The notes below the pieces were generated by a model, which saw nothing but the letters and a program-made list of their open reading frames with translations, had not been told where the DNA came from and did not search any database. Below, piece after piece: positions 1,427 through 60,109 of a stretch of 64,000 bases of DNA; within the stretch, counting starts at the first letter, position 1, and each line of letters starts with the position of its first letter. The DNA is taken from positions 76,333 to 140,332 of the forward strand of contig JBAZSC010000003.1 of NCBI GenBank assembly GCA_041662665.1, written 5' to 3'. The position numbers were made by a program, and so were the translations under genes. Source of the DNA: Patescibacteria group bacterium (GTDB lineage Bacteria; Patescibacteriota; JABMPQ01; JAQVVF01).

Positions 1427-1469
1427 TTCTTCTTCTTCTTCTTCTTCTTCTTCTTCTTCTTCTTCTTCT
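1427..1469 (+). repeat. (TTC)14 microsatellite directly upstream of an extended -10 element (TGgTATAAT) of the 1528 gene
   Basis: Perfect trinucleotide repeat of about 43 nt ending about 2 nt before 'tggttgTGgTATAATat'. Confidence 0.9.
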
Positions 1470-1470
1470 T

Positions 1471-1487
1471 TGGTTGTGGTATAATAT
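1471..1487 (+). promoter_or_regulatory. Putative extended -10 promoter (TGgTATAAT) for the 1528 surface-protein gene
   Basis: TGnTATAAT-like hexamer about 40 nt upstream of the ATG; no canonical -35 because the SSR occupies that position. Confidence 0.4.
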
Positions 1488-1527
1488 AATTAACTAAAAT
1501 TTTTTATACAATAATAAAATAAAAAAA

Positions 1528-3330
1528 ATGAAAAAATTAATCCGAAGAAACAGTTTAATGTTTTTAAGCGCTGTTTTTGTATTGGTACTTTCTTGCTTTG
1601 TTTTTTTGCAGAAAAATGTTCAGGCAGCAACTTGGCAGATTGAGACTGTGGATAATAGTTCGGATAATGTAGGTTCAGATAGTTCTTTGGCTTTGGATTC
1701 TTTTGGTAATCCAAGAATTAGTTATTTTGAAAATGAAAATAAAGCTCTTAAATATGCTTTTTGGAATGGATCTGCTTGGAATATACAAACGGTTGATGAT
1801 ACAGGTAGCGTTGGTCAATATACTTCTTTAGCATTAGATTCTTCTAACAATCCAAGGATTGCTTATCAAGATCTTTCGAATTATAGTCTCAAATACGCTT
1901 CTTGGAATGGCTCTGCTTGGGATATGCAGGCAGTTGATGAGACACATATTATTGCTCGCAGTATTTCTTTAGCATTGGATTCTTCTAACAATCCGAGAAT
2001 TAGTTATTATGATTGGTTTAATGATGATCTTAAATATGCTTCATGGGATGGTTTCGTGTGGGATATTCAGATAATTGATGTTGGTCAGCATCCTTCTCTA
2101 GCTCTAGATTCTTTTAATAACCCACATATTAGTTATTATGATGCTACTCTTGATGATCTCAAATATGCATCATGGAATGGATCTGCTTGGGTTATAGAGA
2201 CGATTGATTCAACAGGTGATGTTGGCGGAGATAATTCTTTAGCTTTGGATTCTTCTAATCACCCACATATTAGTTATTATGATGCTACTCTTGATGATCT
2301 CAAATATGAATCATGGAATGGATCTGCTTGGGTTATAGAGACGATTGATTCAACAGGTGATGTTGGCGGAGATAATTCTTTAGCTTTGGATTCTTCTAAT
2401 AACCCACATATTAGTTATTATGATGCTACTCTTGATGATCTTAAATATGCATCATGGAATGGATCTGCTTGGGTTATAGAAACAGTTGATTCAACAGGTG
2501 ATGTTGGCGGAGATAATTCTTTAGCTTTGGATTCTTCTAATAACCCACATATTAGTTATTATGATGCTACAAATGGTAATCTTAAATATGCTTTTGCTGA
2601 TGTTACTGCACCAATTACAACTGCAAGTCCAGCAGGTGGCATATATTCTTCAACACAATCAGTGGTATTAACAGCTGTTGATGATTCTGCATTTACAACA
2701 TATTATACAACTGACGGATCAGAGCCAACAACTTCTTCAACACAATATACTGTTCTAATTAGTATTTCTTCAGATACAACATTAAAATTCTTTTCCGTTG
2801 ATATTTATGGTAATGTTGAGAATGTAGAAACTGAAATTTATGAATTTGATCGTATTATTTTAACTTCAGAATTAAATAATCAAGCTGTCACTAGTTGTGG
2901 TTTAAAATTCAAGTTTAAGAAATTGCCTACAAAGTTAACTAAAGATAAAAAATACTGGATTAAATGTAAAAAGACTAAGAAGTATCCTAGAAAATGGCAG
3001 AATGCAAAAAAGACTGCCTTGAAGAAATATTGGAAGATAACTACTAATCTCAGAAAATACAAAGTTAAAAAATCTTCACAGAAATTTAAGATTAAAGTAG
3101 CTTTTAAGTATACTAAAGCAGAATTTAAGAAGTTGAGGAAAAGAAATAGATTGGCAAAAGAAAATAATTTGTTTTTGAAATTCAAGATTAAAAAAGGAAC
3201 TTGGAAATCATTATCTGATGTTTGGACTAATGCAAAGATCAAGCGTAATGTGAAAACGAATAGGTTCACTGTCACATATTTTACAAAGTTTCCTAAAAAG
3301 ATTTATTATTTTGGGATTGGATTGAAATAA
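1528..3330 (+). CDS. Secreted modular repeat protein: signal peptide, ~10 beta-propeller-type repeats (…SLALDSxNNPxISYYD…LKYASWNGSAW), chitobiase/beta-hexosaminidase C-terminal-like domain, lysine-rich C-terminal domain
   Basis: N-terminal hydrophobic signal; ~47-aa repeats; 'YYTTDGSEPTTSS…TLKFFSVDIYGN' CHB_HEX_C-like motif; about 160-aa tail with >30% Lys/Arg. Confidence 0.7.
   Translation: MKKLIRRNSLMFLSAVFVLVLSCFVFLQKNVQAATWQIETVDNSSDNVGSDSSLALDSFGNPRISYFENENKALKYAFWNGSAWNIQTVDDTGSVGQYTSLALDSSNNPRIAYQDLSNYSLKYASWNGSAWDMQAVDETHIIARSISLALDSSNNPRISYYDWFNDDLKYASWDGFVWDIQIIDVGQHPSLALDSFNNPHISYYDATLDDLKYASWNGSAWVIETIDSTGDVGGDNSLALDSSNHPHISYYDATLDDLKYESWNGSAWVIETIDSTGDVGGDNSLALDSSNNPHISYYDATLDDLKYASWNGSAWVIETVDSTGDVGGDNSLALDSSNNPHISYYDATNGNLKYAFADVTAPITTASPAGGIYSSTQSVVLTAVDDSAFTTYYTTDGSEPTTSSTQYTVLISISSDTTLKFFSVDIYGNVENVETEIYEFDRIILTSELNNQAVTSCGLKFKFKKLPTKLTKDKKYWIKCKKTKKYPRKWQNAKKTALKKYWKITTNLRKYKVKKSSQKFKIKVAFKYTKAEFKKLRKRNRLAKENNLFLKFKIKKGTWKSLSDVWTNAKIKRNVKTNRFTVTYFTKFPKKIYYFGIGLK
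2121..2575 (+). repeat. Intragenic 141-bp tandem repeat, about 3.2 near-identical copies (encodes 47-aa propeller repeats)
   Basis: Repeat starts at 2121, 2262, 2403 and 2544, giving a period of 141 bp; copies are almost identical at DNA level, unlike the upstream divergent repeats. Confidence 0.85.
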
Positions 3331-3407
3331 CTTTTCTCTAATATTAAAAATTTTGTATTCCAAGATTTTTAATTCTCTAATCGGCTTTTCGAATGTTATC
3401 TTTAATA

Positions 3408-3431
3408 AAAACCCGTCGAGTGACGGGTTTT
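3408..3431 (+). terminator. Rho-independent terminator hairpin (aaaacccgtcgagtgacgggtttt)
   Basis: Inverted repeat plus T-run after the stop at 3330. Confidence 0.6.
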
Positions 3432-3436
3432 GTGAT

Positions 3437-3489
3437 TTCTACCTGGCTTCAGCCAAGTGGTCGGAAAACTTTAGTTTTTAGTTCGAGAG
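3437..3489 (+). repeat. Two-hairpin intergenic element, copy 2
   Basis: TCTACC-cctggc/ttca/gccaagt-GGT…aaaac/tttag/tttt; paralogous to 1303-1353. Confidence 0.6.
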
Positions 3490-3509
3490 ATATTTAGATA
3501 TTGGATATT

Positions 3510-3582
3510 AGCCACTTCCCGGGATCGAACCGGGGACCTTTGCTTTACGAAAGCACTGCTCTACCAACTGAGCTAAAGTGGC
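3510..3582 (-). tRNA. tRNA-Thr (anticodon CGU)
   Basis: Reverse complement folds as a cloverleaf: acceptor GCCACTT/AAGTGGC, D-arm GCTC…GAGC, anticodon loop TTCGTAA, T-arm CCCGG-TTCGATC-CCGGG. Confidence 0.8.
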
Positions 3583-3584
3583 AT

Positions 3585-3655
3585 AGCGGGTAATGAGAAT
3601 CGAACTCACATATCTTGCTTGGGAAGCAAGCGCACTACCACTGTGCTATACTCGC
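3585..3655 (-). tRNA. tRNA-Gly (anticodon CCC)
   Basis: Reverse complement: D-arm GCAC…GTGC, anticodon stem CTTGC/GCAAG with loop TTCCCAA, T-loop TTCGATT, acceptor with one A-C mismatch. Confidence 0.75.
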
Positions 3656-3735
3656 TCATGATTCATTATTCTTAATTCATTATTCTTTAAGATTATACTT
3701 GATTTTTAAAATTTTGTAAATCATGCTAAAATGTA

Positions 3736-3801
3736 ACTAGTGAATAGTAATTAGTAACTAGATTCGACGTACTAATTACTAGTTACTTATTACTAGTTAA
3801 C
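3736..3801 (+). promoter_or_regulatory. Large imperfect palindrome (tagtaattagtaactag … ctagttacttattacta) immediately upstream of the 3812 gene; candidate operator
   Basis: About 16-nt arms around centre attcgacgtac, with iterated TAGTAA/TTACTA half-sites. Confidence 0.4.
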
Positions 3802-3811
3802 AAAAAATATT

Positions 3812-4894
3812 ATGTTGCAAAATAAAGACGTAACCAAACTTAACCGCTTACAAAGTGATAAAGAAGATGTTGTGACAATTTATTTGAATTGCGATCAAAG
3901 AAGATACAAGCCAGAAGAAATAGAAGAAAAATTAAAAGATTTATTGAAAATTGTTGGAGAAAAATTAGGTGCTGAAGAAACAAAGAAAATTGAAGAATGG
4001 ATTGATTTAAGATTAGATAAAAAAGTTAAAGGCATGGCATTTTATGCTAGTCCGTCTAAAAATTTTTGGTCGATTTATAAATTTCCTTGTCCAATTAAAA
4101 CAGGAGCTTATGTTGAAAAGAATGTTCATATCGAACAATTATTGCAAGTCTTGGATGAATTAGAAAGGTATTGTGTTGTAGTTTGTGACAAGGAAAAAGC
4201 AAAAATATTTACAGTTTTTTTGGGTGTCATTCAAGATTTTAGTTATATTTTTGATGAGTTTCCAGGAAAGCATGATCAAGGTGGATTAGCGCAACAAAAT
4301 CAGGCTTCGCATACTGAAGAACATGTTCGTCAGCATTTGAAAAAAATTAATGAACAATTATTTAAGTTCTGGAAAGAAAAAGGATTTGATAGATTAATTC
4401 TAGCTGGATCAAAAGAGGTCTTGCCGGAATTAAAAAAAGTTTTGCATACGGAATTAAAAAATAGAGTAGTCGGTGAATTTTTTACAGAATTATTTAAGCC
4501 TAACGAACATTTTTTGGAGCAGTCTTTAGTAGTTCAAGAAAAAGTAGAAAGACAGAATGAAAAAAAATTAGTTGATGAATTAAATAACAGCTTGAACGGT
4601 CAATTAGCAGTTGCTGGTTTGAAAAAAGTTTTAGATGCAATTCAAGAAAGAGATATAAAAGCTTTATTAGTGGATTCTAAATTAAGTACAACCGGCAAGA
4701 AATGTCCAAATTGTGATTTTTTGGGATTGGATGAAGTTGTTTGTCCTTATTGCAGTTTTAAAACTGAAGATGTGAAAGATGTTGTTGATGAATTAGTTCA
4801 AAAAGCATATAGCCATCGCGCGAAAATAGAGTTTGTTGAAAATAATGAAGTATTAGCGGGAATGGGTGGGATTGGAGCGATGCTACGGTTCTAG
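3812..4894 (+). CDS. Bacterial eRF1/Pelota-superfamily protein (baeRF1-like) with inserted zinc ribbon
   Basis: C-terminal 'LAGMGGIGAMLRF' matches the Pelota/eRF1 domain-3 ending (…GGIAAILRY); three-domain length of about 360 aa; CPNC…CPYC zinc-ribbon insert; 'HDQGG' in the central domain. Confidence 0.55.
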   Translation: MLQNKDVTKLNRLQSDKEDVVTIYLNCDQRRYKPEEIEEKLKDLLKIVGEKLGAEETKKIEEWIDLRLDKKVKGMAFYASPSKNFWSIYKFPCPIKTGAYVEKNVHIEQLLQVLDELERYCVVVCDKEKAKIFTVFLGVIQDFSYIFDEFPGKHDQGGLAQQNQASHTEEHVRQHLKKINEQLFKFWKEKGFDRLILAGSKEVLPELKKVLHTELKNRVVGEFFTELFKPNEHFLEQSLVVQEKVERQNEKKLVDELNNSLNGQLAVAGLKKVLDAIQERDIKALLVDSKLSTTGKKCPNCDFLGLDEVVCPYCSFKTEDVKDVVDELVQKAYSHRAKIEFVENNEVLAGMGGIGAMLRF

Positions 4895-5000
4895 TACTAA
4901 AGTTATAAAGTTTTTAAAGTTCATAAAGTAAAATTGTTAATTGCTAAATTGTTAGAATTATTTAACAATGGAACAATGGAACAATAAAACAATTTCGACT

Positions 5001-5900
5001 ATGAAACCTATCGAGCAAGATAAATTATTATTTCCAGAAATTCTAGCTCCCAGACCAAAAGAAGCTCACAAAAAATCTGTTGGCAGTGTGATGATTGTTG
5101 CTGGATCTGATGGGATGTCTGGAGCAGCAACTTTATGTTCTGAAGCAACAATGCGTGCTGGAGCTGGAATTGTGCTTTTGGCATTTCCAAAAAGTTTGTC
5201 TGAAATTTATACAAAATTAATTCCAGAAGTTTTGACATTGCCTTGCGATGAGACAAAAGAAAAAACTTTGGCATTGTCATCTTTAGATAAAATTTTGGAA
5301 GAAGCAAAAAAATACGATGTGATTTTGATTGGTCCAGGATTATCTCAAAATAATGAAACAAGAAAATTGATTTGTGAATTGTTTAAAAATCTAAAAAATT
5401 TGCATAAAAATGTGGTTTTAGATGCTGATGGATTAAACGCTATTGCTGGTCAAATAGAATTATTAGAAAAATTAGGTGATAACAAAACTATTTTATTGCC
5501 TCATGCTGGTGAGATGGCGAGATTAACAAATAAAGATGTTGATAATATTCAAAGAGATCGAGAATGGCTAGTTAGAAAAAAGGCAAAAGAATGGAAATGT
5601 GTTTTAGTGATAAAAGGTTATGAAACAGTTATTTCTGATGGTGAAAGAGTAATAATTAATAAATCTGGCGGACCGGAATTAGCAACTGCTGGAACTGGCG
5701 ATGCTTTGGCGGGCATGGTCGCTGCTCACTTTGCAGGAAATGTTAATCTGCCTTTTGAAGCAACTGCAACTGCTGTATATTTGCATGGTTTGGCTGGAGA
5801 TATGGTTAGCAAAAAGTTAGGTGAACGTTCTGTTTTGGCGACTGATGTGATAAATATGTTGCCTGAGGTAATAAAGAAAGTGTTAAATAAGTTAGACTAG
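5001..5900 (+). CDS. nnrD: ADP-dependent NAD(P)H-hydrate dehydratase (YjeF C-terminal / Nnr2 family)
   Basis: GSVMIVAGSDGMSGAA…GPGL…DADGLN…GGPELATAGTGDALAGMVAA motifs. The start is placed at an internal ATG (MKPIEQ) because the upstream part of the ORF overlaps an AACAATGG repeat array. Confidence 0.75.
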   Translation: MKPIEQDKLLFPEILAPRPKEAHKKSVGSVMIVAGSDGMSGAATLCSEATMRAGAGIVLLAFPKSLSEIYTKLIPEVLTLPCDETKEKTLALSSLDKILEEAKKYDVILIGPGLSQNNETRKLICELFKNLKNLHKNVVLDADGLNAIAGQIELLEKLGDNKTILLPHAGEMARLTNKDVDNIQRDREWLVRKKAKEWKCVLVIKGYETVISDGERVIINKSGGPELATAGTGDALAGMVAAHFAGNVNLPFEATATAVYLHGLAGDMVSKKLGERSVLATDVINMLPEVIKKVLNKLD

Positions 5901-5947
5901 TTAGATTGGTTAGACTTGTTATTAGTTAAATTGCTAAATTGTTAAAC
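5891..5947 (+). repeat. 9-bp-period GTTAGAYNN tandem array followed by an 8-bp ATTGYTAA array in the 3' intergenic region
   Basis: gttagacta gttagattg gttagactt gtta… attgctaa attgttaa. Confidence 0.7.
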
Positions 5948-5989
5948 TATTTTTTTGTTTCAATGTTTTAGTGTTTAAGTGTTTCTGTA

Positions 5990-6817
5990 ATGGCAAAGTT
6001 TTCAAAAACATTTTTTATTTATGAAGCTGTTTTATTTTTGATAACGCAGTTTTTGGGTTTGTATCTTGGCTGGCGGCTTTTTCAAATTGAAGAAGTAAAA
6101 GAATTAGTAGCGAAGCAGTCATATTCATTATGGCAATTTTTAATTGCATTTGCTGTTGGAACTGTAGTTGTTTTATTTGTAATAAAATATGCAAAAAGCA
6201 GAATAATATTTTCTGGCTTTTTTTATATTTTGATATTTTTGGGTTGTGTTGCTTTTTTTGATGTTTTTGCTTTAGGATATTTAGGATTGGGTTTGGCTTT
6301 GTTGGTTGTAATATTGCGAAGATTTATGCCTTCTGTTTTGACACATAATCTGGCAATTATTTTAGCAATTTCTGGAATTAGTTCGTATATTGGTTTGTCA
6401 TTTTTGCCTTTGCAAATAATTATTATGCTTGTTATTCTATCTATTTATGATTTTATTGCAGTTTTCAAAACTAAACATATGGTTTTGATGTTTAAAAAAA
6501 TGATGGAAAATGGCGCTAATTTGTCAATTATTGTACCTAATAAATTGATCGGTTTTTTGGCTGGAATGGATAAAGCAAAGCCAGGTCAAGATTTTATTTT
6601 TCTTGGAACTGGAGATTTGGCTTTTCCAATTATATTTGCTGTTTCAGTTTTAAGAAATAGTTTGTTAAGTTCGATTTTAGTGATTGCTGGAGCTTTGTTG
6701 GGAGTGATGGCAATAAATATCTATTTTTATTTTAAGAAAGAGAGAACTGCTTTTCCGGCATTGCCACCAATAACAATTGGCTGTATAATTGGATATCTGG
6801 TTTCATTATTTTTTTAG
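5990..6817 (+). CDS. Presenilin/signal-peptide-peptidase-like intramembrane aspartyl protease (A22 family homolog)
   Basis: Polytopic membrane protein with 'YD' (SIYDFIAV), 'GxGD' (LGTGDLAFP) and 'PAL' (FPALPPI) motifs in the canonical order and spacing (about 50 aa apart). Confidence 0.55.
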   Translation: MAKFSKTFFIYEAVLFLITQFLGLYLGWRLFQIEEVKELVAKQSYSLWQFLIAFAVGTVVVLFVIKYAKSRIIFSGFFYILIFLGCVAFFDVFALGYLGLGLALLVVILRRFMPSVLTHNLAIILAISGISSYIGLSFLPLQIIIMLVILSIYDFIAVFKTKHMVLMFKKMMENGANLSIIVPNKLIGFLAGMDKAKPGQDFIFLGTGDLAFPIIFAVSVLRNSLLSSILVIAGALLGVMAINIYFYFKKERTAFPALPPITIGCIIGYLVSLFF

Positions 6818-6826
6818 CTAAAAAAT

Positions 6827-7423
6827 ATGTTGAGAAAAATGCCTAGTTTGTTGCAGATAAAAAGCTTTATGAAGAAAGTGGCGAAAGAAAATGGAATTTC
6901 GGAACAAGTTGATGAAACTTGGGATCATGAGACTCGAGTTTGGAAATTTGCAGAAAAAATTGCAAAATTAGCAATTAAAAATGGCAATAAAGTTGATTTG
7001 GATTTTTTGAAGATTGCTTGTTATACTCATGATTTGGGCAGAATGGTTTCTGGAAGCAAAGCTTCAAAGGAATTAGAGCCAGCAATTTTTCATGGAATGC
7101 GAGGTTATAAATTGGCGAAAGAGCAAGGTTGGCCAGAGAAATTGGCAAGGGTTTGCATTCGGCATATGGGAGGTATCGGACAGACAAAGGAAGTGAATAA
7201 AAAAATAGGATTAGGAAACAAAGATACTTTGGCAAAAACAATTGAAGAAAAGATTTTAGCTTATGCTGATTGTCGGACTTTTTTTAATGTAGAAAAAGGT
7301 AGGGCAGACATTTATCCTTTTGATGTAACTTATCGCAGATTTAAAGTTTATCCTAGAGCAGGAGAATTATTGTTAAAAAATAAAAAGTTTATTGATAAAA
7401 TAACTGGTGGAAAATTGGATTAA
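6827..7423 (+). CDS. HD-domain phosphohydrolase
   Basis: H…HD motif (CYTHDLGR), downstream His (IRHMGGIG) and Asp. Confidence 0.55.
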   Translation: MLRKMPSLLQIKSFMKKVAKENGISEQVDETWDHETRVWKFAEKIAKLAIKNGNKVDLDFLKIACYTHDLGRMVSGSKASKELEPAIFHGMRGYKLAKEQGWPEKLARVCIRHMGGIGQTKEVNKKIGLGNKDTLAKTIEEKILAYADCRTFFNVEKGRADIYPFDVTYRRFKVYPRAGELLLKNKKFIDKITGGKLD

Positions 7424-7572
7424 AATGCGATAATATAAATGCGAGTTAAATAGATTAGACTGATTTGATAAAAAATAAAATTAATAAAATGTTTGATTGC
7501 TAGATTGTTGAATTGTTAAATTGTTAATAATTTAACAATGAAATAATTTAATAATTTATTGTAAATAATAAA

Positions 7573-9684
7573 ATGACAAAATTTAACAAAATTTTTATTT
7601 GGAGCGTTGTTTTTGTGTTAACAATTTTTGGCTTGGCTAATTTTAGCCAAGCTAGAACATGGACGCAAAGCGGGACAGATGGATTAGGAGATACAGCTAA
7701 TTGGAATTTCTATGGTTTTCAGACAATTGGCAATTCACTTTTTACGGGATCTTTGTATGTGGGTCCTGCTAATGGCGCTCAAGCTTTTACAACGTCAGAT
7801 GGATCAACTTGGGTTTCAGTTGATGCAACTGGTTTTGGAGATGGCAACAATTATTCTTATGGAGGCGGAAATACAACATTTAACAATAATGTTTATTTTT
7901 GTTTGAGAAATATTACAACTGGAGCAGAGGTTTGGTCAACATCAAATACTGGCGTTTTGTCTGCTTCACAAGTTAATGTGGATGGTTTTGGAGCTGGCAA
8001 TCAAAATGCTGATTGTTATTTCTTGAAAGAATATAAGGGTATTTTGTATGGCGGAACGGAAAATACAACTGCAGGAGGTCAAGTTTATGCTTATTCTAAT
8101 GGAACAACTTGGACACAAACAAATACTAATGGTTTTGGCAGTATTAATAACGATATTTTTTATTCAGGTGAGGTTTTTAAAAACTACTTATATGTTGGAA
8201 CACGCAATGCTACAACTGGCGGACAGATTTGGCGGACAGATGGAAGTACTTGGTCGCAGGTAACTGGCGATGCATTTGGAGTTGGCAATGCTAGTTATGG
8301 AATTATGACTCTGCAAACTTTTGGTAATTATCTTTATGCTGGTATTGCTAACAATGGCGGTGCGCAAATTTGGCGAACTAGCGATGGTGTTAACTGGACA
8401 AATACTGGTTTTAGCAGCACTTTTAGCTTGAGTATTCAAGGTATGTATGCAACTGACAATTTATTGTTTGCTGGGACCTCAAATCTTGGCAGTGGAGCAG
8501 GTGTTTTTGAAACAAGCGATGGTACAAATTGGATTCAAAATAATGTTGGAGGTTTTGGTACAAGCGGTATTATGGGCAATATTATAGTAAGGGGTATGGG
8601 GTTATTTGGCGATTATTTGTATGCTGGCGCATTTAAAGCTAATGGAGGTACAATTTGGAAAACCGATATAATTCCTCCGATTGTGACAGCTAGCCCAGAT
8701 AATAAAGCTTCTAGAAAAAAGATTAAAGTGACATTATCAAGCAATGACAGTTCAGGATCAATTTATTACACAACTGATGGTTCAATACCGACAACTGGAT
8801 CAAATTTGTATACTGGACAGATAACTTTTAAAAAGACTAAAATTTTAAAATTTATTGGTGTTGATACTGAAGGCAATGTGAGTTCAGTTCAAACGAAACA
8901 TTATGTTGTAACAAGCTATCCATATTTATATAATACTAACAAAGAATTGCGCGAGAAGAATGGGACAATAAAATTTTATAATATTTCAACTTCTAAATAT
9001 GGCAAGAAATTTAAGCCGTTTTCTTCTGGTTTGAAATATTTTACGGTTGCTGATCCAAATCAAGATAATAAGACAGAAATTATTGCAAATAATGGAAATG
9101 AAATTAAGTTTTATAATTCTAAAAGAAAGCTAAGATATACTTTGAAAAGTGCGAATGATTATTTAACATTTGGTGATATTAATAATAGCAAAAAAGAAAA
9201 AACTTTGATTGCAAAAGCTAAGACTTTAAAAATTTATAACAAGACAAGTTTAGAGAAAACATTTAATTTTTCAGAAAATATAAAAAGTATTGCAGTCGGC
9301 AGAGTATTGAAATATGATCAGCCTTTGATAATTGTTGGTTTTGATGATCAGATTAAATTATATAAATATAAAAATAAAAGTTTAGTTTTGAAAAAAACAA
9401 AGTCATTAAACTACAGTAAATTATTGGCTTATGATTTGGATACTAATGGAACTGATAACATTATTTATTCTAAAAACAAAAAAGTTTATGTATTAAATAA
9501 GAAGTTGAAGAAAAAGTTTTCTTTTAGCGCTGGCGGAAGTTTTTTAGCAGTAGCAGATGTCAATGATGACTATTTATTAGAAATTTTAGCAAGTACTGGA
9601 AAGAAATTAAAAACTTATTCAAATGAAGGAATTTTGTTGAATAGCAAAAAAGATAGCGGGAAATGGATTGGAGCAAGATTTTAA
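7573..9684 (+). CDS. Secreted modular repeat protein: signal peptide, Thr/Gly/Trp-rich beta-propeller-like repeats (…GGQIWRTxDGxxWTQ…GFG…), CHB_HEX_C-like domain, Lys-rich C-terminal region
   Basis: Signal peptide; iterated ~45-aa repeats; 'IYYTTDGSIPTTGSNLYTGQI…LKFIGVDTEGN' motif; basic C-terminal 300 aa. Confidence 0.65.
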   Translation: MTKFNKIFIWSVVFVLTIFGLANFSQARTWTQSGTDGLGDTANWNFYGFQTIGNSLFTGSLYVGPANGAQAFTTSDGSTWVSVDATGFGDGNNYSYGGGNTTFNNNVYFCLRNITTGAEVWSTSNTGVLSASQVNVDGFGAGNQNADCYFLKEYKGILYGGTENTTAGGQVYAYSNGTTWTQTNTNGFGSINNDIFYSGEVFKNYLYVGTRNATTGGQIWRTDGSTWSQVTGDAFGVGNASYGIMTLQTFGNYLYAGIANNGGAQIWRTSDGVNWTNTGFSSTFSLSIQGMYATDNLLFAGTSNLGSGAGVFETSDGTNWIQNNVGGFGTSGIMGNIIVRGMGLFGDYLYAGAFKANGGTIWKTDIIPPIVTASPDNKASRKKIKVTLSSNDSSGSIYYTTDGSIPTTGSNLYTGQITFKKTKILKFIGVDTEGNVSSVQTKHYVVTSYPYLYNTNKELREKNGTIKFYNISTSKYGKKFKPFSSGLKYFTVADPNQDNKTEIIANNGNEIKFYNSKRKLRYTLKSANDYLTFGDINNSKKEKTLIAKAKTLKIYNKTSLEKTFNFSENIKSIAVGRVLKYDQPLIIVGFDDQIKLYKYKNKSLVLKKTKSLNYSKLLAYDLDTNGTDNIIYSKNKKVYVLNKKLKKKFSFSAGGSFLAVADVNDDYLLEILASTGKKLKTYSNEGILLNSKKDSGKWIGARF

Positions 9685-12711: not shown

Positions 12712-13093
12712 AACTTAAAACTTTAAAAATCGTTGACCTGGAAAAAGTAAGTTAGTTATTTTTAAAAGTCTGCTTTCGCTAAAGCTACAGCAGACGAAGC
12801 GAATAAGGGATAGTGAGAGCCTTATAAAAATACTAGCTGAAAATGGATCCAGCGAGATGATAAGTTAAATACTTATCCGGTTGCCTCCGTAACCATAGGC
12901 TAACTGATATCTTGAATCCACCTTTGCTAAAGCTTCGGTGGACAAAGGAGTCAGTAAGTGATCAGTGTTTTTGCACTGATAAACAAGGTGGTAACACGGG
13001 AAGACTTCTCGTCCTTGAATACTTTTTAGAAGTATTTTAGGATGAGAAGTTTTTTGTTATGATCGATCTTTCACAACGCAAGGAGGAGAGAAG
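12712..13093 (+). promoter_or_regulatory. About 380-nt structured 5' leader of the RPH-like gene, containing two copies of the CCGCC-hairpin element and several other stem-loops
   Basis: Promoter TTGACT-N17/18-TATAAT at 12677-12708. Hairpins at 12769-12801, 12858-12882 and 12916-12950; a weak terminator-like hairpin at 13018-13040; SD AAGGAGGAG at 13080. Confidence 0.45.
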
Positions 13094-23962: not shown

Positions 23963-24199
23963 TTTGTCCTCCGTCTTTGTTTGTTAGGGTGCAATTTAGC
24001 TTAAATTAGCATAAAAATAAGTTATGCACAACAAAATTATTGATGTTTGGTTTTTGTTGTCCGTCACGCTAATGTTTTTGCGAATGACACTAATAAAAAC
24101 ACTAATAATTTGTTTATCCACAGCTTAAAGTATTGTTGTTTGGTTTTTGTTCGGTTATAATATAAATAACAAAATAACTAAATTATAAATAACAAAATT

Positions 24200-31175: not shown

Positions 31176-31279
31176 TAAGTATCCTGAAAATCTAAGTTTG
31201 AGGTATTGAATACGAGTTAGACTAGTTAGATATGTTAGACTAGTTTTATATTTTTAGGTTTTTATATTTTTATGAAACG

Positions 31280-38516: not shown

Positions 38517-38545
38517 AAATTGTGGTTTTGAAGGTGAGTTAAATA

Positions 38546-38605
38546 GGTTAGATAAGTTAGACTGGTTAGATTTGTTAACGCTAACTAGTTTAACTTATCT
38601 AACTA
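38546..38605 (+). repeat. GTTAGAYNN 9-bp array forming an inverted repeat (ggttagataagttagactgg … ctagtttaacttatctaac)
   Basis: Tandem heptamer cores plus a 19-nt palindromic arm. Confidence 0.6.
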
Positions 38606-38620
38606 ATTTAATTAATTTCT

Positions 38621-40264: not shown

Positions 40265-40267
40265 ATT

Positions 40268-40345
40268 AGTTAGATTTGTTAGACTGGTTAGATAAGTTAG
40301 GCTAGTTAAACGATTGTAAAATTGATAAAATTGATAAAATTCTTA
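40268..40345 (+). repeat. GTTAGAYNN (five copies) then AATTGATAA arrays
   Basis: gttagattt gttagactg gttagataa gttaggcta gttaaac … attgtaaa attgataa aattgataa. Confidence 0.65.
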
Positions 40346-41150: not shown

Positions 41151-41221
41151 CTTGCGAAAAGCTTGATATTCGGATATTATGATATTAAGCGGAAAGTTGT
41201 TTTTGTGTTTTTAGTGTTTAA

Positions 41222-42721
41222 GTGTTCGAGTGTTTTATGACAATAGAAGATCTAAAAAAGAAAAATATTCATGTCTTAGGCGTTTCTGGAGCTGAAGGAA
41301 GCGCGGTTTTGGAATTTTTGGCTGATAATGGAGTTAAAAATATTACTGCTCATGATTTTTGCGATCAAGATAAATTTAAAGAAAGTTTTTTTTCTTTTCA
41401 TGACAAAATGACAAAAAAAGAAAAAGAAGAAACATATAATGAGATTATCCGCCTTCGCCAAGGCTCCGGCGGACAAGGAAAGGTTAAGTTTAATTATAAA
41501 GATACTTATCTTGACCAAATTGAAAAGGCAGATTTGATTTTTGTGCCTCAATCTTGGTTTAGATATGCGCAAAATGATTTATTGAACCAGCATAAAGGAA
41601 AAATCGAATTTTCTAATATTACAAAATTATATTTTCAATTTTGCAAAGGCAAAATAATTGCAATAACTGGAACATCTGGAAAATCAACGACTTCAGCATT
41701 AGTAAATGATATAATGAAGCGAGGATATAAATTAGGCAAGGTCTATTTTACTGGCAATGATCGTGAGAATGTACAGATTCTAAAAAATATTTTTGAAATT
41801 AAAGAAAATGATATTTTAGTTGTTGAAGTAAGCAACAGGCAATTAATGATTGATTTGAAAAAAAGTCCGTATATTGGCATTATTACGAATATCTCGCCGA
41901 ATCACATGGATGATCATAAGACTTTTACTGATTATATTACAACAAAGAGAAGTTTGATCAGATATCAAAAAAAAGGTGATTTTGCAATTTTGAATTTTGA
42001 TAATGATATTACAAAGGATATTGGCTTAGATATTGATTCAACAGTTTATTATTTTTCTAGAAAAGGCAGAGTTGATCGAGGCGCTTATGTAAAATTCAAT
42101 GAAATAATAATTCAAGATTTTGAAAGAGAAAGAAAAATTTGTTCAGTTTTGGATTTAAAAATTCCTGGACCACATAACATTGAAAATGCTTTGGCAGCAA
42201 GTTTGGCTGGATATTTGATGAAAATTAATACGAAAGATATCAGAGAAGCATTGTTAAATTTTAAGGGTATAAAATCGAGATTAGAATTAGTAAGAGAAGT
42301 TGATGGCGTTTCATATATTGAAGATTCTTCAGCTTGCAATCCTGATGGGACTGCTGTTGCTGTTTCATCATTTAAAAAACCAATGATTTTAATTGCTGGA
42401 GGATCAAGGAAAAAACCATATCCAGGAGAATTCGATAGAATGGCTGATTCAATAATAAATTCAAAAGTAAAAATTGTTTTTTTGATTGGAGAGAGAGCAG
42501 AAACAATTAAATTAGCTTTAAAAAATTCGAGTATAAGATTTCAAAAAACTAGTCCAATAATTAAAATATCTGAAAATTTGGAGGATGCAGTTATTTCTGC
42601 CAATAAATCAGCAAAAAGAGGTGATATCGTAATTTTATCGCCTGGTTGTGAAAGCTTTGGTCTCTTTATTGATTATCGCGATCGAGCGAGACAGTTTAAA
42701 AAATTAGTGAAAAGTTTATAA
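41222..42721 (+). CDS. murD: UDP-N-acetylmuramoylalanine--D-glutamate ligase carrying an in-frame CCGCC-hairpin element insertion
   Basis: 'HVLGVSGAEGSA', 'GTSGKSTT' Mur-ligase motifs; element at 41447-41482 encodes 'RLRQGSGGQGKV'. Confidence 0.75.
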   Translation: MFECFMTIEDLKKKNIHVLGVSGAEGSAVLEFLADNGVKNITAHDFCDQDKFKESFFSFHDKMTKKEKEETYNEIIRLRQGSGGQGKVKFNYKDTYLDQIEKADLIFVPQSWFRYAQNDLLNQHKGKIEFSNITKLYFQFCKGKIIAITGTSGKSTTSALVNDIMKRGYKLGKVYFTGNDRENVQILKNIFEIKENDILVVEVSNRQLMIDLKKSPYIGIITNISPNHMDDHKTFTDYITTKRSLIRYQKKGDFAILNFDNDITKDIGLDIDSTVYYFSRKGRVDRGAYVKFNEIIIQDFERERKICSVLDLKIPGPHNIENALAASLAGYLMKINTKDIREALLNFKGIKSRLELVREVDGVSYIEDSSACNPDGTAVAVSSFKKPMILIAGGSRKKPYPGEFDRMADSIINSKVKIVFLIGERAETIKLALKNSSIRFQKTSPIIKISENLEDAVISANKSAKRGDIVILSPGCESFGLFIDYRDRARQFKKLVKSL

Positions 42722-43905: not shown

Positions 43906-46860
43906 ATGAAAAAAATATTTGTATTTGGAGCAGTATTTATTGCTTTAATTTTGTTTTGTTTTTTTAATTTCATACCTATTAAAAATGTATTGGCTTCGGA
44001 ATCATGGAAAGCAATGGATGGTGGTACAAACAATGAAATAACTTCTTTTGCTGTTTATAATAACGAATTGTACGTTGGAGGAAGTTTTACAGAAGTTGGT
44101 GGAATTAGTGCAGATTATATTGCCAAATGGAATGGTTCAACTTGGAGTGATGTAGGGGGTGGAACGGATAGTGATGTTTTAGCAATGGCTGTTTATAATG
44201 GCGAACTTTACGTAGGTGGTTATTTTTCAGTGGTAGGAAGTGTTAGTGCTAATTATATAGCAAAATGGGATGGCAACACTTGGAGCGCTATTGGTACTGA
44301 ATCGATGGATAGCAATGTGTATGCTCTTACAGTGTTCAATAATAAACTTTATGTAGGCGGAGATTTTACTACAATTGATGGGGTAAATCCTGTATTATAT
44401 ATTGCATATTGGGATGGTAATACTTGGAGTGCTGTTGGAGCTGGAGTAGACTATGATATTTATGTTTTGGCTGTATATAATAATGAGTTGTATGCTGGAG
44501 GAGATTTTTTGAATGCTGGTGGGGCTAGCGCAAATTATATTGCAAAATGGGATGGTAATACTTGGAGTGCTATTGGTACTGGAACTGATAATACAGTTTA
44601 TACAATGGCAGAATATGATGGAGAACTTTATGTAGGCGGGAGATTTGATACAGCTGGTGGAGTGAGTGCCGCAAAAATTGCAAAGTGGGATGGCAATACT
44701 TGGAGTGTTGTTAGTACTGGTTTTGACAACACTGTACTAGTGCTTTCTGTTTATAATAATAAGCTTTATGCAGGAGGATATTTTAAAAATGCTGGTGGTG
44801 CTAATGCTAATTATGTTGCAAAATGGGATGGTGATGCTTGGAGCGGAGTCGGAACAGGTATGAATAGCTACATAAATGCATTTGTTATTTTTAACAATGC
44901 TTTATATGCTGGAGGTAATTTTGAGTTTATTAATGTTTTAAAAGCTGATTTTGTTGCAAAATGGGATAGTGATACTGCTGATTGGAGCTCAGTTGGTACA
45001 GGTATGAATGGTGCTATATATGATTTTGTTGTATATAATGCTGAGCTTTATGCAGCTGGTACTTTTTCTAATGCTGGAGGCGTAGTTGCACATTATATTG
45101 CAAAATGGGATGGTAATACGTGGACTGCATTGGCTTCAGAGGTAAATAACATTGTTTATACGTTAGTTGTTTATAATAACGAGCTTTACGCTGGTGGATA
45201 TTTTACCCAAGCTGGTGGGGGTAGCGCAAATTATATTGCAAAATGGGATGGAAATTCTTGGAGTGCACTTGGAACAGGAATGAATCAATATGTATACACA
45301 ATGGCTGTTTATAATGACGAGCTTTATGCTGGTGGAACTTTTGCTACCGCTGGCGGAGTTAGTGTTAACTATATTGCAAAATGGGATGGTAATGCTTGGA
45401 GTGCGCTTGGAACAGGAATGAACAGTTATGGTTTCGTAAATACTTTGGCAGTTTATAATAGTGAACTTTATGCAGGAGGAAATTTTACTACTGCAGGCGG
45501 TATTAGTGCTTTGCGTATTGCAAAATGGGACGGTGATTCCTGGAGCGCACTTGGAGTCGCGGGTACTGGGATGAATTCTTCTGTTGGTGCTTTAATCGTT
45601 CATAACAATGAACTTTATATTGGAGGTTATTTTACTACCGCTGGAACTGTTAATCCAGCTAATCGTATTGTGAAATGGGATGGTAATAATTGGTTTGCTT
45701 TAGGAAGCGGGGTAGAAGGACAAGGCGGTGCTGGGGTATCTAATCTTGATATCTATAATGATCAACTTTATGTAGCAGGAAATTTTACTTCTGCAGGTGG
45801 TATTGATGCATTTCGTATTGCAAAATGGGACGGTAATTCCTGGAGCGCAGTTGGAAATGGAGCAACTGATAGTGTGGCAGCAATGACTGATTACGATGGA
45901 GAGCTTTATGTTGGTGGTTTGTTTTACTATGTTGATGGTGAATCGGTACTACATATTGCATATACTGATAGTATTGTCCCAGTTACGACTGCTACTCCAG
46001 CAGGTGGAACTTATGATGATTCTGTGTCAGTAACTTTGGCATCCGATGAGACAGCAACAACTTATTATACTATTGATGGGTCTACTCCAAGCACATCTTC
46101 TTTAGTTTATTCTGATCCAATTGTGATTTCTCAAGATACAACGCTTAAATTTTTTTCTGCAGATTCCTTTGGTAATGAAGAAGTTGTGAAAACAGAGAAT
46201 TATGTTATAAATATAACACCAACTCCTACTCCAGAGCCGACTCCTACACCAACGCCAACAATATTATTTAATGAAAAAATAAATTTAAAGAATATTACAT
46301 TAAATACTATTTATCGAAGCCCAATTGATAATGCTGATCTTTTATTTTATAGGTTGCCTAAACAAGGATCGATAAAAGATTTGTATATAAAATTGATTCG
46401 AAATAAAACAAAATATATTAATGGTTTTACAAAAAAGAATAGTCATCCAGGTTATTTAAAGTTGTTATCAAATATAGGTACAGTTGACAAAGCATATTAC
46501 AATAAAGTTGATAAGCATATTAAATTTAGAATTTCAATTCGTTATTCAAAAAATAAATTAAACAAAGCAAATATCAAAGAAAAAGATTTGAGACTATTTA
46601 TAAAAGATAGAGATAATAATTGGCGAGGACCATTTACGATATATCAAAATAGAACTACTCATATAATAAAATTTAAGATCAGAAATTATTTGGTTAAAAT
46701 TCCAAATACAGCTACTTTGGCAAATGAAAATAGGACTTTTGCTCCATGTTTTTATTTTAAGACAATTGAAAAAATAAAATTTGTGATTGCGAAGAAAAAT
46801 GCATTGTCTAAATTAAGCAAGCTTGAGACTGTAGAAGATAAAAATTTGATTTTTGAATAG
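43906..46860 (+). CDS. Giant secreted modular protein: signal peptide, ~17 'YIAKWDGNTWS…NELYAGG.F..AGG' beta-propeller repeats, CHB_HEX_C-like domain, (PT)n linker, Lys-rich C-terminal domain
   Basis: Repeats of about 50 aa; 'TTYYTIDGSTPSTSS…TLKFFSADSFGN'; 'PTPTPEPTPTPTPT'; basic C-terminal domain of about 200 aa. Confidence 0.7.
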   Translation: MKKIFVFGAVFIALILFCFFNFIPIKNVLASESWKAMDGGTNNEITSFAVYNNELYVGGSFTEVGGISADYIAKWNGSTWSDVGGGTDSDVLAMAVYNGELYVGGYFSVVGSVSANYIAKWDGNTWSAIGTESMDSNVYALTVFNNKLYVGGDFTTIDGVNPVLYIAYWDGNTWSAVGAGVDYDIYVLAVYNNELYAGGDFLNAGGASANYIAKWDGNTWSAIGTGTDNTVYTMAEYDGELYVGGRFDTAGGVSAAKIAKWDGNTWSVVSTGFDNTVLVLSVYNNKLYAGGYFKNAGGANANYVAKWDGDAWSGVGTGMNSYINAFVIFNNALYAGGNFEFINVLKADFVAKWDSDTADWSSVGTGMNGAIYDFVVYNAELYAAGTFSNAGGVVAHYIAKWDGNTWTALASEVNNIVYTLVVYNNELYAGGYFTQAGGGSANYIAKWDGNSWSALGTGMNQYVYTMAVYNDELYAGGTFATAGGVSVNYIAKWDGNAWSALGTGMNSYGFVNTLAVYNSELYAGGNFTTAGGISALRIAKWDGDSWSALGVAGTGMNSSVGALIVHNNELYIGGYFTTAGTVNPANRIVKWDGNNWFALGSGVEGQGGAGVSNLDIYNDQLYVAGNFTSAGGIDAFRIAKWDGNSWSAVGNGATDSVAAMTDYDGELYVGGLFYYVDGESVLHIAYTDSIVPVTTATPAGGTYDDSVSVTLASDETATTYYTIDGSTPSTSSLVYSDPIVISQDTTLKFFSADSFGNEEVVKTENYVINITPTPTPEPTPTPTPTILFNEKINLKNITLNTIYRSPIDNADLLFYRLPKQGSIKDLYIKLIRNKTKYINGFTKKNSHPGYLKLLSNIGTVDKAYYNKVDKHIKFRISIRYSKNKLNKANIKEKDLRLFIKDRDNNWRGPFTIYQNRTTHIIKFKIRNYLVKIPNTATLANENRTFAPCFYFKTIEKIKFVIAKKNALSKLSKLETVEDKNLIFE

Positions 46861-54184: not shown

Positions 54185-54200
54185 ATGTTGCATTAAATAA

Positions 54201-54265
54201 GTTAGATTAGTTAGATAGGTTAGACTGGTTATTTATAAATTGTTCAATTGTTAAATTGTTAATAT
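54201..54265 (+). repeat. GTTAGATNN array followed by ATTGTTAA array
   Basis: gttagatta gttagatag gttagactg gtta … attgttca attgttaa attgttaa. Confidence 0.65.
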
Positions 54266-54308
54266 TAATTTTGACAATTTAGCATTTTAACAATTAAACA
54301 ATTAAGTT

Positions 54309-59983: not shown

Positions 59984-60109
59984 GCTAACTATTGAATACT
60001 GAATATTTTTGTGCTATTATGATATTGTAAGAAAAAAGTTAGACTAGTTAGACTAGTTAACTATTTTCTGTTTTCTATTTACTATAAATTAATTAAATTA
60101 TAAATAACT

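Follow-up and report, generated by a model that had tools for sequence, protein, structure and literature searches.

A perfect (TTC)14 tract within a conserved promoter as a candidate contingency locus of a secreted propeller gene in Patescibacteria

The Patescibacteria (Candidate Phyla Radiation, CPR) are ultrasmall, mostly uncultured bacteria that are probably attached to other microbes, and the main open problem of the group is how hosts are chosen, held and exchanged. Contingency loci in which a simple repeat lies between the -35 and -10 elements of a surface-protein promoter include poly-G in Neisseria porA and opc, TA in Haemophilus hif and poly-A in Mycoplasma hyorhinis vlp. Here we describe a perfect (TTC)14 microsatellite in the promoter of a gene encoding a 600-amino acid secreted, lectin-like propeller protein, found in a 64 kb stretch of DNA (the window) of a 211,616-nt contig from a Patescibacteria metagenome-assembled genome (JGI metagenome 3300037810). 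The window has 32% G+C and a GC skew that is positive throughout. The nearest described counterpart of the tract belongs to the vlhA (pMGA) genes of Mycoplasma gallisepticum, where a (GAA)n repeat with conserved flanks lies ~40 nt upstream of the transcription start site (TSS) and expression depends on repeat number, with 12 units giving the highest expression, possibly via an activator (PMC6258824). Among CPR bacteria, the gene for a Gracilibacteria surface protein with PTD repeats is hypervariable and fragments assemblies, and slippage and recombination have been discussed for it (Sieber et al. 2019, PMC6851277). Two further bodies of work concern the encoded protein: near-identical blades in recently amplified propellers have been taken to show that amplification or homogenisation is still under way (Pereira & Lupas 2022, PMC9218822; Afanasieva et al. 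2019, PMC6805158), and the Photorhabdus PLL/PHL proteins are secreted and multivalent, with up to seven sugar sites per monomer (PMC6943638, PMC6797808).

The likeness of our locus to vlhA is one of sequence anatomy. In each, some dozen GAA·TTC units lie upstream of a core promoter, with conserved flanks on both sides, in a genome-reduced bacterium and in front of a gene for a surface or host-binding product. They differ in that the pyrimidine strand is the coding strand in the window, in that the tract ends ~11 nt before a sigma-70-type extended -10 whereas that of vlhA lies ~40 nt upstream of a non-sigma-70 promoter, and in that a single gene is involved here as against dozens, each with its own tract. 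No homology to the VlhA haemagglutinin lipoprotein was found, Pfam giving only CHB_HEX_C_1, Fn3_assoc and DUF7253 on the window protein. With the spacer contingency loci the window shares a simple repeat in a surface-protein promoter, but its promoter lacks a -35 element and the 3' junction of the tract is fixed relative to the -10; a (G)10 tract at the locus of a distant family member (L014, below) may be of the spacer type. Like the PTD-repeat gene, the locus is a repeat-bearing extracellular protein gene of a CPR bacterium that breaks assemblies; the difference is that our repeats are those of a promoter and of propeller blades, whereas the PTD repeat is a coding 9-mer, situated in a coil region and variable at synonymous sites. 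As in amplified propellers, near-identical blades occur inside one propeller, but only blades 4-7 are homogenised within an older propeller, as if part of the propeller had been re-amplified or gene-converted and not as if a new propeller had arisen. Searches of the open-access literature yielded no case of promoter-repeat phase variation in CPR/Patescibacteria. If confirmed, this would be the first promoter-repeat contingency locus for the Patescibacteria; promoter switches and near-identical blades are each already known.

Relatives of the locus were collected by a scan anchored on the peptidyl-prolyl isomerase (PPIase), with one genome per species, which yielded two with a ~80% identical PPIase, designated L006 (CAZNOH01) and L007 (JAQVVF01). 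L008, L009 and L010 are the species of L007 in three JGI metagenomes. The promoter region of the window contains three elements:

1416-1424, + strand: upstream box TGTGGATAA, invariant in the orthologous L007, L008 and L009 promoters.
1427-1468, + strand: perfect (TTC)14 microsatellite, 14 exact units by regular expression.
1475-1485, + strand: putative core promoter TGTGgTATAAT (a TRTG extended -10, from the sequence), with a predicted TSS near 1492.

The first-pass annotation of this DNA had reported a perfect (TTC)14 repeat in the promoter of the secreted propeller gene, and both the regular expression search and Tandem Repeats Finder (TRF; 1427-1470, period 3, 14.7 copies, 100% matches) bear this out, although the exact units end at 1468, one nucleotide short of the 1469 originally given. 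Counting the flanking pyrimidines, the homopyrimidine run is 47 nt long (1425-1471); it is a mirror-symmetric homopurine-homopyrimidine sequence. Such a repeat is exceptional for the genome: it is the sole long simple repeat in the 64 kb, where no other trinucleotide repeat goes beyond 4 copies and homopolymers reach at most 8 nt, and no TTC/GAA run of at least 5 units was found across ~100 kb of related loci. A TTC/GAA tract is likewise absent at the second propeller gene of the window (at 43906) and at five other family promoters. Over 1,456 nt a Logan unitig (SRR18595301) matches the window perfectly; it breaks off after 30 nt of the tract, as expected for k=31. It proves the tract real while carrying no information on its length. 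With 10 or more TTC units and the same flanking sequence present in this independent unitig, an artefact of assembly can in effect be discounted. A coding role was also rejected, as the 33-codon TTG-start poly-Leu open reading frame (ORF) across the tract (1396-1497) is not conserved in L007 and includes the -10 element. A search of 1200-1560 for known RNA elements returned only sub-threshold chance matches. Frequent changes in length are to be expected of a perfect 14-unit simple repeat.

The extended -10 consists of TGTG (1475-1478), a G (1479) and TATAAT (1480-1485), 43 nt ahead of the ATG at 1528, and 11 nt separate the end of the tract from TATAAT. The position of a -35 element (1456-1463) falls inside the tract, as had been noted in the first annotation, but no -35 element is present there: the sequence reads TTCTTC and matches TTGACA at only 2/6 positions, which is why a consensus scan did not list the promoter. 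From its sequence, the core promoter appears to be of the -35-less TRTG extended -10 type. Because the 3' junction of the tract is fixed and there is no -35 element, slippage would leave -35/-10 geometry unaltered. A change in repeat number shifts only the sequences upstream of ~-66, the region from the -10 back to ~-66 remaining constant. The earlier proposal that slippage alters promoter geometry thus survives for the distance and phase of the upstream box and fails for -35/-10 spacing. An alternative TATAAT further upstream (1378-1383), which would place the tract in the 5' untranslated region, has no TG and no -35 and is not conserved, and was judged less likely.

Comparison with the relatives places the tract between two conserved promoter blocks. 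The L007 promoter is orthologous and consists of TGTGGATAA, a 15-nt spacer TTTTTTTTATTCGAA and then TGTGaTATAATAT; the box and the TGTGnTATAAT -10 block are conserved, 15 nt apart, in the species of L007, L008, L009 and L010, and the block TGTGnTATAATAT.ATTAA is kept in L007-type loci. In the window the spacer is C-TTTC(TTC)13-TTTGGT in place of the 15 nt of the sister, a net gain of ~35 bp that has shifted the box from ~-37 to ~-72. Since both flanking blocks are conserved and the sister spacer has been replaced, the alignment shows the TTC tract to be a lineage-specific expansion within a conserved promoter. The sister spacer TTTTTTTTATTCGAA already includes a TTC seed, and the tract could be neutral, the seed having expanded in a T-rich spacer and tract length, even if variable, being without effect on an extended -10 that is independent of upstream sequence; it would then be no switch. 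We consider this possible but on the unlikely side. It is favored by the perfect extended -10, by a -35 position that reads the non-consensus TTCTTC at any repeat number, and by the tract being the lone long simple repeat in the window while most family promoters are without one. Yet other long perfect trinucleotide repeats are absent across ~160 kb of the lineage, the tract sits precisely between the two conserved blocks of a secreted-protein gene promoter, and the purity of its 14 units implies that slippage is ongoing. Were the tract fixed or inert, the locus would be an ordinary microsatellite beside an ordinary propeller protein.

A further argument against neutrality comes from L014, the locus of a distant family member found via P0246, on an AT-rich Patescibacteria contig. 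Its sequence TCTGTGTATAACT matches TCTGTGGATAACT of the window at 12/13 positions, and a (G)10 tract (3909-3918) begins 8 nt past this box and lies 74 nt before the ATG of a Kelch-type member of the family. By its position, the (G)10 tract would be a second, independent simple repeat at the equivalent site. The gene at L014 also has an assembly gap (a run of N) within its repeated blades.

The distance from the box to the -10 hexamer is 19-20 nt in both L007 and L014 and 55 nt in the window, and a return to the ancestral spacing would need the loss of ~12 units, so that no one-step reversion is available. These distances, together with the mirror symmetry of the 47-nt homopurine-homopyrimidine run, could be taken to mean a fixed rewiring, in which the core promoter has been uncoupled from the TGTGGATAA-binding factor or has acquired a static H-DNA or insulator element, leaving the gene constitutively on or silenced. 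Tract length would then count only by its total size, with no reversible switching. We find this distinctly improbable, as a static 14-unit tract is unlikely from general knowledge of simple repeats and there is no sign of decay in the gene, its 600-codon ORF being intact and its fold confidently predicted.

We regard it as quite plausible, though short of probable, that the tract is a length-dependent expression switch and the promoter a candidate contingency promoter. Slippage in the tract would change the number of units, and tract length would set the distance and helical phase between box and core promoter by 3 bp, or ~103 degrees, per unit; length might also decide whether the homopurine-homopyrimidine run adopts non-B DNA, H-DNA being possible in principle. 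Cells would thereby come to differ heritably in how strongly they express the surface or host-binding protein, in the manner of the vlhA (GAA)n and unlike a -35/-10 spacer switch. In the propeller itself, blades 4-7 would be homogenised by gene conversion or re-amplification, with their number held at seven by the closed fold. If true, a slippage switch on a lectin-like protein would be a simple way to vary attachment or to evade recognition by host or phage, and promoter-repeat phase variation, described mainly in animal pathogens and mycoplasmas, would be extended to an environmental reduced-genome lineage.

Several observations weigh against such a switch. An extended -10, -35-less core should fire without upstream elements, so an effect of tract length requires a box-binding factor, and the box motif is unenriched in the window (4 found, 4.2 expected). 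The TSS near 1492 is a prediction from sequence. There is no 'phasome' signature, in that the 64-kb window has a single long simple repeat, and simple repeats are absent from four other family promoters (L005, L015, L016 and L017). A T8 run in the sister promoter is identical across four assemblies. At L014, the -10 element downstream of the (G)10 is ambiguous and the region is common to a divergent gene. Finally, all assemblies except the source break at or before the TTC tract, and no second allele across the tract was recovered from the searchable collections. Exact-protein look-ups with the PPIase, the propeller protein and the product of the downstream baeRF gene gave only the source contig and four short contigs, each ending at the TTC tract, within the array of 141-bp repeats in the propeller gene or beyond that array; two metagenome scans, one with a DNA pattern of the -10 region and the other with the PPIase protein, produced no further alleles, and a search with the N-terminal 200 amino acids of the propeller protein found nothing above 60% identity.

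The box TGTGGATAA is the reverse complement of the DnaA-box consensus TTATCCACA. A role in a replication origin was rejected on the uniformly positive GC skew and the lack of motif enrichment; a role as a DnaA-type operator is a possible lead. Matches to the DnaA-box consensus (reverse complement TGTGNATAA) occur in the window at 1416-1424 and 1647-1655 on the + strand and at 24022-24030 and 24114-24122 on the - strand. Three of the four sites match TGTGGATAA perfectly, whereas 24022-24030 reads TGTGCATAA; one site is conserved in the orthologous promoter, and the overall count equals chance expectation. The two minus-strand matches belong to a repeat-rich region near 24.0-24.2 kb and are spaced 92 nt apart.

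The gene downstream of the promoter encodes a modular protein with the following features:

1528-3330, + strand: gene for a 600-amino acid secreted protein with signal peptide, seven-bladed propeller, CHB_HEX_C domain and lysine-rich C-terminal module.
1528-1626, + strand: putative Sec signal peptide, residues 1-33, likely cleaved at VQA|A (read from the sequence).
1633-2598, + strand: predicted closed seven-bladed beta-propeller of the BNR_4/DUF7253 type, residues 36-357, 28 strands (AlphaFold2, predicted local distance difference test (pLDDT) >90).
2094-2591, + strand: homogenised blades 4-7, 3.5 copies of a 141-bp unit with 94-99% nucleotide identity (TRF and blade alignment).
2629-2829, + strand: CHB_HEX_C_1/Fn3_assoc domain, residues 368-434 (Pfam, E = 2.9e-17).
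2845-3327, + strand: lineage-restricted lysine-rich C-terminal module, residues 440-600 (HMMER).

The first-pass description of the product as a secreted propeller protein is supported in silico by the signal peptide and the lectin-like seven-bladed fold, and the genome is that of a Patescibacteria bacterium. After MKKLIRRNS at the N-terminus come a hydrophobic stretch of 18 residues and VQA|A, and the model has a helix at residues 3-26; this N-terminus likely represents a typical Sec signal, and orthologues have the same layout. The database record annotates the start at 1558, and the basic n-region MKKLIRR is retained only with the start at 1528. Homologues of the protein have the Pfam domain PF15892 BNR_4. 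AlphaFold2 run on the single sequence was unusable (pLDDT 33.6), whereas an alignment of 60 homologues raised residues 36-357 above 90, the 28 predicted strands forming seven four-stranded blades. A Foldseek search of this model against the PDB gave the Photorhabdus PLL/PHL proteins as best matches (E = 2.6e-15, target TM-score 0.71-0.76, identity 11-13%). The two share the predicted seven-bladed fold, but the low identity, the different Pfam assignment (BNR_4/DUF7253) and the additional CHB_HEX_C and lysine-rich domains set our protein apart, and we call it lectin-like, with sugar binding and membership of the PLL/PHL family putative.

The 160-residue C-terminal module was found in 57 representatives (E <= 0.001) among 1.84 billion proteins by an exhaustive HMMER search, where a word-indexed search had given one match only. 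In almost all of these representatives the module is C-terminal, and the propellers joined to it are of the FG-GAP, Reg_prop, DUF5122/Kelch-like, lactonase/YNCE-like or BNR-like types. A constant tail that bears changing heads fits a surface-display family, in which the module might serve as the anchor. Members with the lysine-rich module occur in multiple copies per genome and sometimes in tandem arrays, as at L007 (2593-4212 and 9237-11042), and L015 (1-4883) has three adjacent propeller-family genes 23-47 nt apart, of which the first two contain FG-GAP repeats. A second secreted repeat protein is encoded in the window at 43906-46860 (984 amino acids), 28 nt after an FtsW-like gene. It has ~14 Kelch-like repeats of 46 amino acids (138-bp period, 66-77% matches), a CHB_HEX_C-like segment, a PT-rich linker and an unrelated C-terminus, no homology being found between the latter and the lysine-rich C-terminus of the 1528-3330 protein.

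Within the propeller, TRF reported the 141-bp array at 2094-2591 with period 141, 3.5 copies and 95% matches. Of the four near-identical units first annotated, the three that begin at 2121, 2262 and 2403 share 96-99% identity, while the one at 2544 is identical over its first ~27 nt only and 54% identical overall. In blade register, nucleotide identity is 94-96% among blades 4-6, 90-94% between these and the first half of blade 7, and 69-75% among blades 1-3. Because the identity reaches synonymous sites, it reflects recent homogenisation rather than purifying selection. The orthologue P0097 (on contig L005), which has 49% identity and the same architecture, has exactly seven blades, all diverged, with 55-65% mutual protein identity among its blades 4-6. 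TRF detected no DNA-level repeats in the propeller-coding region of P0097, and none were found among the blades of L007 and L016. Since an orthologue at 49% identity is also seven-bladed, there has been no net blade expansion; the comparison points to blades 4-7 having been overwritten by each other, through gene conversion or deletion and re-duplication, at a constant seven. The P0097 gene was also seen to start with ATG followed by A9 (ATGAAAAAAAAA, L005 587-598), a coding homopolymer at the extreme 5' end that is the longest of its contig.

Exchange among the units is recorded in L002, a contig of a 99.9%-identical strain from another sample (JGI 3300014208). That L002 has near-identical units as well also speaks against an assembly artefact. 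L002 differs from window positions 2312-7292 by five mismatches, of which three (2401, 2442 and 2450) lie within its first 140 nt. Each of these three falls at a site that varies among units, and each carries the base of a neighbouring unit, a pattern with a probability of ~1e-5 to 1e-6 under random substitution by a hand estimate. L002 contains a hybrid of units 2 and 3 after a unit-1-type end. One unequal crossover, leaving one blade fewer, or one shifted-register conversion, leaving the same number, would produce this equally well, and an assembly chimera could, with lower probability, also underlie the pattern. Recombination does take place among the 141-bp units, and the recombinational instability that had been proposed is in this sense upheld, but not as a free change in copy number.

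Blade number itself might vary freely, generating size or antigenic variants of an adhesin, a question that we judged apart from the three readings of the tract. The 3.5 units are 94-99% identical including synonymous sites, assemblies break within the array, and the hybrid 2/3 unit of L002 is the product expected of a one-unit deletion. Against this, the units are the blades of a predicted closed seven-bladed propeller, which should be intolerant of arbitrary blade numbers, a point that argues against free copy-number variation, and the orthologue also has exactly seven. L002 begins inside the array, a single conversion explains it just as well, and near-identical blades at constant architecture have already been described (PMC9218822). 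We therefore consider free variation in blade number very doubtful, and the recent expansion with variable repeat number initially suggested is unlikely.

The gene and its promoter are together bracketed by two copies of a ~90-bp direct repeat:

1270-1362, + strand: upstream copy, with the PPIase terminator hairpin (1273-1297) and two small hairpins.
3405-3497, + strand: downstream copy, with terminator hairpin 3408-3431.

The hairpin stems show compensatory changes between the copies, and the repeat has no Rfam match. In L006, where the gene is absent, a single ~90-bp copy is present (9128-9205) and the order is PPIase, terminator, tRNA-Thr/Gly and baeRF, with no propeller gene. In L007 the terminator part is duplicated on either side of its gene. 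The slot in L007-L010 holds a gene for a protein of 599-601 amino acids in which the CHB_HEX_C and lysine-rich C-terminal parts are homologous to those of the window and the N-terminal propeller is Kelch-like. As both the presence of the gene and the number of ~90-bp copies differ among relatives, the slot has been filled, emptied or refilled during species divergence, and with the copies only ~75-80% identical it is not a fast switch. The repeat could be the mark of gene insertion or deletion, or a small structured RNA located 3' of the minus-strand tRNA operon. It is conceivable that all of these elements form a modular surface-lectin system, with swappable propeller heads (BNR-like, Kelch-like, FG-GAP and others) on a lysine-rich anchor, duplicated-terminator slots, a shared box and extended -10 promoter, and independent repeats such as the (TTC)14 and the (G)10 of L014. 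We rate this wider proposal as unlikely; if true, it would give the CPR its first described contingency loci, by which an episymbiont would vary its host-attachment repertoire stochastically.

Other features of the window lie outside the propeller gene. The baeRF gene (3812-4894; bacterial archaeo-eukaryotic release-factor-like, 'host attachment protein') is directly downstream of the tRNA pair and conserved in all relatives. A T-box leader (Rfam RF00230, 99.8 bits) is present at 12724-13019 on the + strand. Short phased tandem repeats make up many intergenic regions, at 5890-5984, 31215-31273, 38537-38618, 40265-40341, 54193-54305 and 60037-60085, with further examples at 4898-4993, 7485-7558 and 41165-41235; all are on the + strand. 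They consist of three to four copies of the 9-bp nGTTAGAyn right after a stop codon, and then of 8-bp runs (TAAATTGy, TGTTTAAG) ahead of the next start codon. Part of one such phased-repeat intergenic region is conserved in L006.

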